Below are positions 52,397 through 55,957 of a stretch of 64,000 nt of DNA, piece by piece (within the stretch, counting starts at the first letter, position 1; the number at the start of each line of letters is the position of its first letter). The position numbers and the translations under genes are program-made. The stretch comes from Escherichia coli (lineage in GTDB: Bacteria; Pseudomonadota; Gammaproteobacteria; Enterobacterales; Enterobacteriaceae). Under the pieces are notes generated by a model. The model saw nothing but the letters and a program-made list of their open reading frames with translations, was not told the DNA's origin and did no database searches. The stretch is taken from the NCBI RefSeq assembly GCF_003334355.1, contig NZ_QOWP01000024.1. One strand, given 5' to 3'.

Positions 52397-54676
52397 ATGA
52401 AGAAAAAAATTGAATCCTACCAGGGTGCTGCCGGTGGTTGGGGTGCTGTTAAATCCGTAGCGAATGCAGTACGTAAGCAGATGGATATACGCCAGGATGT
52501 TATTGCCATGTTTGACATGAATAAGCCAGAGGGCTTTGACTGTCCGGGTTGTGCATGGCCAGATCCTAAGCACAGTGCGTCATTCGACATTTGTGAAAAC
52601 GGCGCAAAAGCAATCGCCTGGGAAGTCACGGATAAGCAGGTAAACGCCTCTTTCTTTGCTGAGAATACGGTTCAATCATTACTTACCTGGGGAGACCACG
52701 AGCTTGAGGCTGCGGGGCGACTCACTCAGCCTTTGAAATATGATGCCGTCAGCGACTGTTACAAGCCATTAAGCTGGCAACAAGCTTTCGATGAAATTGG
52801 CGCACGCCTTCAAAGCTATAGTGATCCCAATCAGGTTGAATTCTATACTTCGGGCCGCACTTCCAATGAAGCTGCCTTTCTTTATCAGCTTTTTGCCCGT
52901 GAATACGGGAGCAATAACTTTCCCGACTGCTCCAACATGTGCCATGAACCGACAAGCGTGGGTTTGGCAGCGAGTATCGGTGTAGGTAAAGGGACCGTGT
53001 TGCTGGAAGACTTTGAGAAGTGCGATTTAGTCATTTGCATTGGGCATAACCCTGGTACAAACCACCCTCGCATGCTGACTTCGTTGCGCGCTTTAGTGAA
53101 ACGGGGAGCGAAAATGATCGCCATCAATCCTCTACAGGAACGTGGCCTGGAGCGATTTACTGCACCGCAAAACCCGTTTGAAATGCTGACGAACTCTGAG
53201 ACTCAGTTGGCCAGTGCCTACTATAACGTGCGCATTGGTGGTGATATGGCGTTGCTCAAGGGGATGATGCGCCTGTTAATTGAGCGCGATGATGCTGCAA
53301 GCGCCGCAGGTCGGCCCTCATTGCTGGATGACGAATTTATTCAAACGCATACCGTCGGCTTTGACGAGCTACGCCGTGACGTTCTCAATTCCGAGTGGAA
53401 AGATATCGAACGTATTTCTGGATTAAGTCAGACTCAAATCGCCGAACTGGCTGATGCATATGCCGCTGCCGAACGAACCATTATCTGTTACGGAATGGGG
53501 ATCACTCAGCACGAACATGGTACCCAGAATGTACAGCAACTGGTCAATCTGCTGTTGATGAAAGGTAACATTGGCAAGCCTGGTGCGGGTATCTGCCCAC
53601 TACGTGGCCACTCTAATGTACAGGGCGACCGAACCGTCGGTATCACCGAGAAACCGTCTGCAGAGTTTCTGGCTCGCCTGGGTGAGCGCTATGGCTTCAC
53701 ACCACCTCAAGCACCTGGACATGCTGCAATTGCCAGCATGCAAGCAATATGTACAGGGCAGGCTCGAGCATTGATCTGCATGGGGGGCAACTTTGCACTG
53801 GCAATGCCAGATCGGGAAGCGAGCGCTGTACCGTTAACGCAATTAGATCTGGCGGTACACGTAGCCACTAAGCTTAACCGCTCTCATCTGCTGACCGCAC
53901 GGCATAGCTATATTCTGCCGGTTCTGGGACGTAGCGAGATTGACATGCAAAAAAGCGGTGCGCAGGCGGTAACCGTTGAGGATTCAATGTCGATGATTCA
54001 TGCCTCGCGTGGCGTGTTAAAACCCGCCGGTGTAATGCTGAAATCAGAGTGTGCAGTGGTCGCGGGAATCGCGCAGGCAGCACTACCCCAGAGCGTGGTA
54101 GCCTGGGAGTATCTGGTGGAAGATTATGATCGCATTCGCAATGACATTGAAGCTGTGCTGCCAGAGTTCGCCGATTATAACCAGCGCATCCGACATCCTG
54201 GTGGTTTTCACCTGATAAACGCTGCTGCTGAAAGGCGCTGGATGACTCAGTCAGGTAAGGCTAATTTCATTACCAGCAAAGGGCTGTTAGAAGATCCCTC
54301 TTCAGCGTTTAACAGTAAGCTGGTCATGGCGACAGTACGCAGCCACGATCAGTACAACACGACGATTTATGGTATGGATGATCGCTATCGAGGGGTATTC
54401 GGTCAACGAGATGTGGTCTTTATGAGTGCTAAACAAGCTAAAATTTGCCGTGTAAAAAACGGCGAAAGAGTTAATCTTATTGCGCTTACGCCAGACGGTA
54501 AGCGCAGCTCACGCCGCATGGATAGATTAAAAGTGGTCATTTACCCTATGGCTGACCGCTCACTGGTGACCTATTTTCCAGAATCGAATCACATGCTAAC
54601 ACTTGATAACCACGATCCATTAAGTGGCATTCCTGGCTATAAAAGTATTCCGGTTGAATTAGAACCATCAAATTAA
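52397..54676 (+). CDS. ydeP: Molybdopterin oxidoreductase-family acid-resistance protein
   Basis: 759-aa ORF with an N-terminal Cys cluster ([11 protein letters not shown]) and formate-dehydrogenase-like domains. Confidence 0.85.
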
Positions 54677-54789
54677 TGCCTCTTCTCATTTCTTCTGCTG
54701 TCATCCGCACAGCAGAAGAATCCCTCATTGACTATTATCGCGCAATTTGCTCACATGGATTAAATTAAACTACATACTATAAGATATAA

Positions 54790-54850
54790 ACTTCTGCCTA
54801 CAGCTGTAAGAAACTCCGTTCAGTACTGAAGCGCCAGTCCTATTTCCTCT
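54790..54850 (+). repeat. Copy B of the repeated intergenic motif
   Basis: cctacagctgtaagaaactccgttcagtactgaagcgccagtcctatttcc, located immediately downstream of ydeP as copy A is downstream of ydeQ. Confidence 0.4.
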
Positions 54851-54923
54851 TTTCTCCGGCCTGTTATATTAAGCATACTGATTAACGATGCTTAACGTTA
54901 TTCGCTTAATAAACATATTTGAA

Positions 54924-55121
54924 ATGCATGCGACCACAGTGAAAAACAAAATCACGCAAAGAGACAACTATAAAGAAATCATGTCTGCAATTGTGGTTGT
55001 CTTATTACTGACCCTTACGTTGATAGCCATTTTTTCGGCAATTGATCAGCTGGGCATTTCAGAAATGGGTCGCATTGCAAGAGATCTTACACATTTCATT
55101 ATCAATAGTTTGCAAGACTGA
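54924..55121 (+). CDS. safA: Small membrane protein SafA, connector between the EvgS/EvgA and PhoQ/PhoP systems
   Basis: 65 aa from MHATTVKNKITQRDNYKEIMSAIVVVLLLTLTLIAIFSAI, with a single TM segment. Confidence 0.8.
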   Translation: MHATTVKNKITQRDNYKEIMSAIVVVLLLTLTLIAIFSAIDQLGISEMGRIARDLTHFIINSLQD

Positions 55122-55195
55122 AAATAAACAGCAAATTATAAATATGAAATGTTAAAAAAGTATCGATAAAAACTTTATTGTTTTAAGGAGATAAA

Positions 55196-55957
55196 ATGTC
55201 GCTCGTTTGTTCTGTTATATTTATTCATCATGCCTTCAACGCTAACATTTTAGATAAAGATTACGCCTTCTCTGACGGCGAGATCCTGATGGTAGATAAC
55301 GCTGTTCGTACGCATTTTGAACCTTATGAGCGGCATTTTAAAGAAATCGGATTTAATGAAAATACCATTAAAAAATATCTACAATGCACTAACATCCAGA
55401 CAGTGACGGTGCCTGTTCCTGCGAAGTTTTTACGTGCTTCAAATGTACCGACTGGATTGCTTAATGAAATGATTGCTTATCTCAACTCGGAAGAACGCAA
55501 TCATCATAATTTTTCAGAACTTTTGCTTTTTTCTTGCCTGTCTATATTTGCCGCATGCAAAGGTTTCATTACACTATTAACTAACGGTGTGCTATCCGTT
55601 TCCGGGAAAGTGAGAAATATTGTCAACATGAAGCTGGCGCACCCATGGAAGCTGAAAGATATTTGTGACTGCCTGTACATCAGTGAAAGCCTGTTGAAGA
55701 AAAAACTAAAGCAAGAGCAAACGACATTCTCACAGATTCTATTAGATGCCAGAATGCAGCACGCAAAAAATTTGATACGCGTAGAAGGTTCAGTCAATAA
55801 AATTGCCGAACAATGTGGTTATGCCAGTACATCTTATTTTATTTATGCGTTCCGCAAACATTTCGGCAACAGTCCGAAGAGAGTTTCTAAGGAGTATCGT
55901 TGTCAAAGGCACACGGGTATGAACACGGGCAACACGATGAATGCTTTAGCTATTTGA
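55196..55957 (+). CDS. ydeO: AraC-family acid-resistance regulator
   Basis: 253-aa ORF with a C-terminal AraC HTH (SQILLDARMQHAKNLI...IAEQCGYASTSYFIYAFRKHFGNSP). Confidence 0.85.
   Translation: MSLVCSVIFIHHAFNANILDKDYAFSDGEILMVDNAVRTHFEPYERHFKEIGFNENTIKKYLQCTNIQTVTVPVPAKFLRASNVPTGLLNEMIAYLNSEERNHHNFSELLLFSCLSIFAACKGFITLLTNGVLSVSGKVRNIVNMKLAHPWKLKDICDCLYISESLLKKKLKQEQTTFSQILLDARMQHAKNLIRVEGSVNKIAEQCGYASTSYFIYAFRKHFGNSPKRVSKEYRCQRHTGMNTGNTMNALAI

Follow-up and report, generated by a model that had tools for sequence, protein, structure and literature searches.

The block between positions 52397 and 55957 of the window, by which we mean the entire 64-kb stretch of E. coli chromosome analyzed here, is almost certainly the E. 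coli ydeP-safA-ydeO locus itself, orthologous to that of K-12 and directly controlled by the acid-sensing EvgS/EvgA phosphorelay. The module, its regulators and their binding sites are already known and have been characterized experimentally in K-12. The block holds three plus-strand open reading frames in the same order as in K-12: ydeP with 759 aa (52397-54676), safA with 77 or 65 aa depending on the start codon (54888 or 54924 to 55121), and ydeO with 253 aa (55196-55957). Their counterparts in K-12 MG1655 are b1501, b1500 and b1499, and the two strains share gene order, gene lengths, the flanking genes ydeQ (upstream) and ydeN (downstream) and the intergenic lengths of 333, 247 and 74 nt. 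The preliminary description had proposed this assignment along with an alignment against K-12 as its check. That alignment gives 98.0-98.7% DNA identity and no indels, either within genes or in the three intergenic regions, and the assignment stands on identity and synteny with K-12, on NCBIfam equivalogs and on the Pfam SafA model. By gene, identity is 98.68% for ydeP (H438Q, N520S and P618Q), 97.98% for safA (S44G and G65D) and 98.56% for ydeO (T54N, P147L and S238R), which makes 8 amino acid substitutions against K-12, 3, 2 and 3 respectively. Over 4.4 kb the sequence matches strain MLI023K1 at every position (100% identity), and the RefSeq annotation of that strain names the genes ydeP, safA and ydeO; of 5426 complete E. 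coli genomes, 5395 have this block.

One could argue for paralogues, or for diverged genes that only resemble the named ones, and E. coli does possess other AraC-family proteins related to YdeO, GadX among them. We consider this exceedingly improbable. Genes that are 98-99% identical to K-12 in DNA, of the same lengths and between the same neighbors, at a median of one copy per genome across those 5395 genomes, are not what that idea predicts, and the equivalog scores exceed both their cut-offs and the next family by a wide margin. YdeP scores 1832.9 bits against NF007406 (cut-off 1473), aligned over 1-759 of 759 positions. YdeO scores 606.6 bits against the AraC/XylS equivalog NF007407 (cut-off 348), aligned over 1-253 of 253; the next family is GadX at 106.5 bits. 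SafA finds no match among the NCBIfam models, but residues 1-65 fall on positions 1-65 of the 66 in Pfam PF17073 (E = 1.3e-47, 160 bits), and RefSeq carries it as WP_000543389.1. Nothing that we found speaks against the orthologous locus, and we hold to it from here on.

YdeP belongs to the FdhF/YdeP family of Mo/W-bis-PGD oxidoreductases, with 1200 bits against the subfamily model TIGR01701 (cut-off 582). Its Pfam domains, Molybdopterin (PF00384) and Molydop_binding (PF01568), are the molybdopterin and molybdopterin-dinucleotide-binding domains that FdhF-type formate dehydrogenases also have. Against solved formate dehydrogenase alpha subunits the E-values run from 1e-36 to 1e-44 and the active-site C/U-H motif is aligned; the stretch NMC182H183EPT lies on RVCHSPT of the Cys-type formate dehydrogenase 9wxb_B, which places it on the CH active-site motif. 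Where FdhF-type enzymes carry selenocysteine YdeP has Cys182, a replacement already noted (PMC4283999). YdeP is nevertheless not an FdhF equivalog, since its score with the Fdh-alpha equivalog, 269 bits, stays well short of the cut-off of 666.

The argument that this locus is an EvgA target begins with two inverted repeats. We take the EvgA consensus to be TTCYTACA-NN-TGTARGAA, attributed to Masuda & Church 2003 and Itou et al. 2009. The preliminary description had pointed to 52064-52396 and 54677-54923 as the places to look for EvgA sites, and the search finds one inverted repeat in each and none elsewhere in the 64 kb. The 18-bp repeat upstream of ydeP (ATCCTACACCTGTAAGAA, 52136-52153) has one mismatch to TTCYTACANNTGTARGAA; K-12 has two, with AGCC where this copy has ATCC, so the window copy is one base nearer the consensus. 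The repeat upstream of safA (TGCCTACAGCTGTAAGAA, 54795-54812) also has one mismatch, is identical in K-12 and lies 112 nt ahead of the safA start codon. Its core, CCTACA-NN-TGTAAGAA, is unchanged in 7 sampled alleles. At up to one mismatch these are the only two matches in the 64 kb, and 100 shuffles gave none. Both the presence and the uniqueness of the two predicted boxes are thus established. Both are present in K-12 as well.

The consensus was checked empirically on K-12 EvgA targets only. The palindrome is also found upstream of the K-12 targets emrK/evgA, frc and yfdX, where inverted repeats bound by EvgA have been marked (PMC3720670). An EvgA site is said to be present in all directly EvgA-regulated genes (PMC4283999). 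Upstream of gadE, however, the strict consensus found no site in the 5 kb of K-12 from 3655000 to 3660000, and the sole match there at up to three mismatches lies inside mdtE. It is important to realize, therefore, that some of the EvgA targets on record escape this pattern. EvgA-P binding and evgA-dependent acid induction have been reported for the K-12 locus (PMC4283999; preprint 10.64898/2026.05.06.723403; PMC5706723; PMC11210196), and EvgA would be expected to occupy both boxes in this strain.

The two promoters resemble each other well beyond the boxes. The ydeP and safA promoters are similar over ~115 bp without a gap, and on the diagonal anchored at the box they share 56 of the 97 positions downstream of it. 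The emrKY/evgAS, frc and yfdX promoters have the same 18-bp inverted repeat upstream, but downstream of it only 20-40 of 97 positions are identical with ydeP or safA. To us this looks like a duplicated promoter cassette, judging from the sequence comparison. Within it lies a putative extended -10 for ydeP (TGTTAATTT, 52203-52211, plus strand), a block conserved with the safA promoter. Its positional homologue on the ungapped diagonal is the putative extended -10 of safA-ydeO (TGTTATATT, 54862-54870, plus strand), which is unchanged in 7 alleles. We infer transcription start sites near 52219 for ydeP and near 54878 for safA-ydeO. A sigma-70 scan offered another candidate for ydeP, TTGAAG-16-TATATT at 52167-52194, which we set aside. 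The putative block at 52203-52211 is preferred because it is conserved with the safA promoter and fits a leader of 178 nt, the length used in PMC11210196.

The ydeP leader of ~178 nt (52219-52396, plus strand) would be structured, with a predicted fold of -40.9 kcal/mol (z = -3.4) made of hairpins at 52246-52277 and 52286-52305 and an enclosing long-range helix that pairs 52222-52232 with 52345-52355. No Rfam family matched anywhere in 51900-56400 at E <= 1, which leaves the leader and the intergenic regions without a known RNA family. A terminator-like match on the minus strand (52304-52287) is the same hairpin as the second stem-loop of the plus-strand leader and is not a terminator. The leader also contains an upstream ORF beginning with ATGATG at 52226. 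A SNP in the stop codon makes it longer in K-12 (16 codons) than here (11 codons), so this ORF does not keep its length.

There are two ways to divide the locus into transcripts. We favor two units, ydeP and safA-ydeO, each with its own EvgA box. The alternative is a single three-gene operon transcribed mainly from the ydeP promoter, in which expression of safA and ydeO depends on read-through beyond the end of ydeP, and the EvgA box of safA is only accessory. The three genes do share a strand, and the name 'ydeP-safA-ydeO operon' has been used (PMC11052181). The hairpin just 3' of the ydeP stop (54690-54720, plus strand), which is also present in K-12, can be read either way. It is strong (-17.5 kcal/mol, z = -5.0), which counts against the single operon. 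It also lacks a U-tract, and the intrinsic-terminator scan passed over it, so some read-through is plausible. Further, safA has an EvgA box of its own, and the ~97 bp that follow this box, -10 block included, are homologous to the promoter and leader of ydeP. An EvgA-regulated safA-ydeO promoter with working PsafA reporters has also been described (PMC5706723; preprint 10.64898/2026.05.06.723403). We therefore think a single operon unlikely and keep the two units.

The second unit would run through the 74-nt spacer between safA and ydeO (55122-55195, plus strand), which serves as the ydeO leader, carries the Shine-Dalgarno AAGGAG at 55185-55190 and differs from K-12 at 1 position. The segment from -74 to +10 of ydeO binds CsrA with a KD of 84 nM (PMC11210196). 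After ydeO there is a hairpin resembling an intrinsic terminator (56005-56037, plus strand), with 8 pairs (6 of them G-C), a loop of 7 and a T-run in its tail, CGTTGTTTTT.

The leader of safA differs between this allele and K-12 in a way that bears on the start codon. Taken at its longest, the ORF opens at ATG 54888 and gains 12 in-frame codons (MLNVIRLINIFE, 54888-54923, plus strand). The preliminary description had held this start to be 12 codons too long, and it agrees in this with RefSeq, whose safA of 198 nt begins at 54924 on identical DNA. By sequence comparison the true start is most likely ATG 54924, which probably makes the 12 codons before it untranslated leader. The case for the short form rests on comparison and annotation because the extension here is itself an open in-frame ORF with an ATG. 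Comparison among strains can resolve the start because the extension in K-12 contains a stop codon: where this allele has the in-frame ATG, K-12 has ATT plus an in-frame TAA.

The other reading is that translation in this allele starts at ATG 54888 and yields a SafA of 77 aa with a 12-residue N-terminal cytoplasmic extension. The open frame with its ATG occurs in two allele families among the 5426 genomes, that of the window (385) and a second one (177), which together put an in-frame upstream ATG in ~10% of complete E. coli genomes. Within the extension the two families are separated by four changes, 2 of them synonymous and 2 conservative, which is too small a sample to be meaningful, and a clear Shine-Dalgarno is missing at both candidate starts. 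Against these points, ~79% of the genomes (4277) have the K-12-type leader with ATT and TAA, and it is in K-12 that the 65-aa protein was characterized. The first position of the Pfam SafA model falls on the initial M of the 65-aa form, RefSeq gives 65 aa on identical DNA, and a start site near 54878 would leave ATG 54888 with a leader of only ~10 nt. The 77-aa form is in our opinion improbable. A more elaborate proposal, that the ydeP and safA promoters are a duplicated ~115-bp cassette (EvgA box, promoter and start of the leader) and that an ancestral-looking in-frame leader ATG, kept in ~10% of genomes including this one, yields a 77-aa SafA isoform, we hold to be more doubtful still. We continue with the 65-aa protein.

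SafA of 65 aa (54924-55121, plus strand) is a single-pass membrane connector. Its segments, MHATTVKNKITQRDNYKEI-MSAIVVVLLLTLTLIAIFSAI-DQLGISEMGRIARDLTHFIINSLQD, are a K/R-rich stretch at residues 1-19, a hydrophobic stretch at about 20-40 and a C-terminal tail of ~25 aa; the basic N-terminus and the hydrophobic segment were read directly from the sequence. Both substitutions against K-12, S44G and G65D, fall in the part that touches PhoQ, the periplasmic tail. Published work describes the operon of safA and ydeO, the EvgA-dependent promoter ahead of it and what SafA does to PhoQ, with binding and activation of PhoQ known for the K-12 allele (PMC5706723; preprint 10.64898/2026.05.06.723403). 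SafA has not been identified outside E. coli (PMC5706723). By description it is like E. coli MgrB and Salmonella UgtL and UgtS, short single-pass membrane proteins that also act on the periplasmic and transmembrane domains of PhoQ (preprint 10.64898/2026.05.06.723403). MgrB, however, inhibits PhoQ where SafA activates it, and SafA is controlled by EvgA rather than by PhoP, unlike MgrB, UgtL and UgtS.

Published work supplies the mechanism that joins these parts, and the layout of the locus supports it: orthology, gene boundaries and promoter similarity are observed here, and the activities of all the proteins are those expected for this strain from their K-12 counterparts. At mildly acidic pH EvgS would phosphorylate EvgA, and EvgA-P on the 18-bp inverted repeat upstream of the two similar promoters would activate two transcripts. 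The first would carry ydeP behind its structured leader of ~178 nt and give a cytoplasmic molybdopterin oxidoreductase with Cys in place of selenocysteine. YdeP would aid acid resistance in exponential phase, possibly by formate oxidation. Its contribution to acid resistance is known from K-12 (PMC4283999; PMC11210196), where either YdeP alone or the YdeO/GadE branch suffices for evgS-constitutive acid resistance (PMC4283999). The second transcript would be the bicistronic safA-ydeO. SafA in the inner membrane would bind the PhoQ sensor domain through its periplasmic C-terminal tail and raise autophosphorylation, linking EvgS/EvgA to PhoQ/PhoP. YdeO, an AraC-type acid-stress activator, would switch on gadE and other genes and thereby the glutamate-dependent AR2 system; its K-12 regulon includes gadE and other promoters with a YdeO box (PMC4222967). 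EvgS alleles in nature differ in how they respond to acid (PMC5706723), and evgAS, like the target promoters of YdeO, lies outside the window.

We believe this locus is useful as a positive control. Gene identities, the locations of the regulator sites and the error at the start of a small gene were all called from sequence and all confirmed, and safA is a clean case of longest-ORF calling that over-extends a small gene. If the 77-aa isoform were real, its membrane insertion or its activation of PhoQ might differ. For the evolution of the EvgA network two points may be of interest, each as an incremental contribution: the likeness between the promoters of ydeP and safA, and the upstream ATG allele carried by ~10% of complete genomes.

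The three open reading frames of the proposed acid-resistance module lie exactly where the preliminary description put them, all on one strand: ydeP at 52397-54676 (759 aa), the longest safA frame at 54888-55121 (77 aa) and ydeO at 55196-55957 (253 aa). The identification could be questioned if these were paralogues of the named genes. Alignment with K-12 MG1655, the check proposed there, gives 97.98-98.68% nucleotide identity: ydeP differs at 30 of 2280 nt (98.68%; H438Q, N520S, P618Q), safA at 4 of 198 (97.98%; S44G, G65D) and ydeO at 11 of 762 (98.56%; T54N, P147L, S238R). 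No indel alters the intergenic regions, which at 333, 247 and 74 nt are as long as in K-12 and carry 5, 10 and 1 substitutions respectively. Against its NCBIfam equivalog, NF007406, YdeP reaches 1833 bits where the cut-off is 1473; YdeO reaches 607 bits against NF007407 (cut-off 348), and the runner-up family for YdeO is GadX at 106 bits. SafA has no matching NCBIfam model, and its residues 1-65 align to the 66-position Pfam SafA model (PF17073) with E = 1.3e-47. The K-12 identity and these family scores together rule out paralogues, so the names stand.

The setting of the module agrees with this. By megablast the 52000-56400 block is present in 5395 of 5426 complete E. coli genomes (median one copy per genome), with 100% identity in a handful of strains, MLI023K1 among them; the annotated order at every match is ydeQ, ydeP, safA, ydeO, ydeN. 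The entire window is collinear with MLI023K1 at 99.56% identity and is the counterpart of the K-12 34-35 min region in reversed order, running through ydfJ, mar, lsr, hipBA, ydeTSRQ, ydeP-safA-ydeO, ydeNM, yddAB and pqqL. Elsewhere along this run, a segment of about 6.2 kb (~12445-18620) separates eamA from marB, which in K-12 lack it and lie 30 bp apart; it carries a GntR regulator, PTS IIB/IIC/IIA components, a carbohydrate porin and a 6-phospho-beta-glucosidase. The IIC gene is broken into two ORFs (13729-14418 and 14388-15089) and the porin ORF stops at 16884, whereas both are intact in MLI023K1; they are probably pseudogenes in the window. Between lsrK and hipB stands an intact 1806-aa autotransporter ORF (40797-46217), named 'ECSE_1600 family autotransporter' by RefSeq in the near-identical strain; the yneO pseudogene is all that K-12 carries at this position. 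At 48881-50573 the reading frames of ydeT (382 aa; the usher is truncated, as it is in K-12) and ydeS (176 aa) are unbroken, while RefSeq calls both pseudogenes in MLI023K1, by an internal stop and a frameshift respectively.

The description also held that the safA track start is 12 codons too long, and comparison bears this out. The ATG at 54888 precedes the accepted start, ATG 54924, by exactly 12 codons. At its position K-12 has ATT, followed by an in-frame TAA within the extension, and the same is true of 4 of 5 other alleles sampled. The first position of the Pfam model falls on the Met that opens the 65-aa form, and the RefSeq genes of MLI023K1 map to 52397-54676 for ydeP, 54924-55121 for safA (198 nt) and 55196-55957 for ydeO. 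The extension in the window allele really is open, in frame and begun by its own ATG, so the short form is argued from comparison only. Allele-specific 40-mer searches of the 5426 complete genomes found the K-12-type leader (ATT and in-frame TAA) in 4277, the window type (ATG, open frame) in 385 and another allele with the ATG in 177. The leader (54878-54923) thus falls into at least three allele families, and the form with the ATG is similar to the leader of ydeP, its paralogue (GATGCTTAAC). Further very small genes open to miscalling by a longest-ORF track are mgtS and mgtT, placed at ~9790-9990 by the near-identical strain's annotation; K-12 also has the sRNA mgrR annotated there.

EvgA sites were expected upstream of ydeP (52064-52396) and safA (54677-54923). 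We scanned the whole window for the 18-bp inverted repeat TTCYTACA-NN-TGTARGAA, taken as the EvgA consensus (Masuda & Church 2003; Itou et al. 2009). Exactly two matches were found, each with one mismatch and each inside one of those intervals: ATCCTACACCTGTAAGAA at 52136-52153 and TGCCTACAGCTGTAAGAA at 54795-54812. One hundred dinucleotide-preserving shuffles gave no match at one mismatch or fewer. The same scan of K-12 DNA served as an independent check on the motif; it located the palindrome between emrK and evgA, with a perfect match upstream of frc and two copies upstream of yfdX. An EvgA site is present at every gene known as a direct EvgA target (PMC4283999). No site was found in the 5 kb of K-12 examined upstream of gadE, so the strict pattern cannot be taken as complete. 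The safA box core CCTACA-NN-TGTAAGAA shows no variation among the seven E. coli alleles sampled, while the ydeP box has ATCC where K-12 has AGCC, one base nearer the consensus.

The likeness between the two promoters goes beyond their boxes. From the EvgA box they align for about 115 nt without gaps on a single diagonal at an offset of 2659 nt (52136-52250 and 54795-54909). Downstream of the boxes 56 of 97 positions are identical, compared with 24.9 ± 4.5 (maximum 45) at every other offset in the window. Other EvgA-driven promoters from K-12, lined up by their boxes, agree with either at only 20-40 of the 97. Judged against both, the two regions have the look of a promoter-leader cassette that was duplicated. 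Both conserve the block TGTTAnnTTAAnCA, which resembles an extended -10; its sequence is TGTTAATTT at 52203-52211 for ydeP and TGTTATATT at 54862-54870 for safA. The ydeP leader used in PMC11210196, -178 to +10 as counted from the start codon, puts the 5' end at ~52219, eight bases past this block. We infer a ydeP transcription start near 52219 and, by homology, a safA start probably near 54878. The ~178-nt ydeP leader (52219-52396) folds at -40.9 kcal/mol (z = -3.4 against shuffled sequence), with a long-range helix around two strong hairpins (52246-52277 and 52286-52305); an Rfam search of the leader returned no family match. A short ORF inside it, from ATGATG at 52226, has 11 codons in the window and 16 in K-12. 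Just past the ydeP stop codon lies a strong hairpin lacking a U-tract (54690-54720, z = -5); the one downstream of ydeO (56005-56037) has a T-run and resembles a terminator. The 74-nt safA-ydeO spacer has a strong Shine-Dalgarno AAGGAG for ydeO, and CsrA binds it with a KD of 84 nM (PMC11210196).

The safA-ydeO segment is 36-40% GC, or 34-40% with its flanks included (54500-56500), against ~50% for ydeP. Such AT-richness agrees with PMC5706723, where the operon is said not to have been identified in anything other than E. coli. It would also suit a lineage-restricted acquisition, and possibly silencing by nucleoid proteins.

The anatomy of the locus agrees with the mechanism worked out in K-12. 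Mild acid activates EvgS, and EvgA-P turns on ydeP and safA-ydeO (PMC4283999, 10.64898/2026.05.06.723403, PMC5706723, PMC11210196). SafA, a small membrane protein, touches the PhoQ periplasmic domain with its C-terminal region and speeds PhoQ autophosphorylation, linking EvgS/EvgA to PhoQ/PhoP (10.64898/2026.05.06.723403, PMC5706723). YdeO, an AraC-family activator of gadE, gadW, slp-dctR, hya, appC, nhaR and yiiS, acts via ATTTCA repeats and controls AR2 through its targets (PMC4222967). YdeP is an FdhF family member with a Cys182-His183 motif in place of Sec-His, and formate oxidation is its proposed reaction (PMC4283999, PMC3720670). For the acid resistance of evgS-constitutive mutants, either YdeP by itself or the YdeO/GadE branch is enough (PMC4283999). 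YdeO, PhoP and CsrA exert negative feedback (10.64898/2026.05.06.723403, PMC11210196). Natural EvgS alleles differ in acid responsiveness (PMC5706723); evgS itself lies outside the window. The observation of ydeP-safA-ydeO is confirmed and its interpretation supported, as an already known module to which this analysis adds only the similarity of the ydeP and safA promoter cassettes and a count of how common the safA leader allele with the ATG is among genomes.
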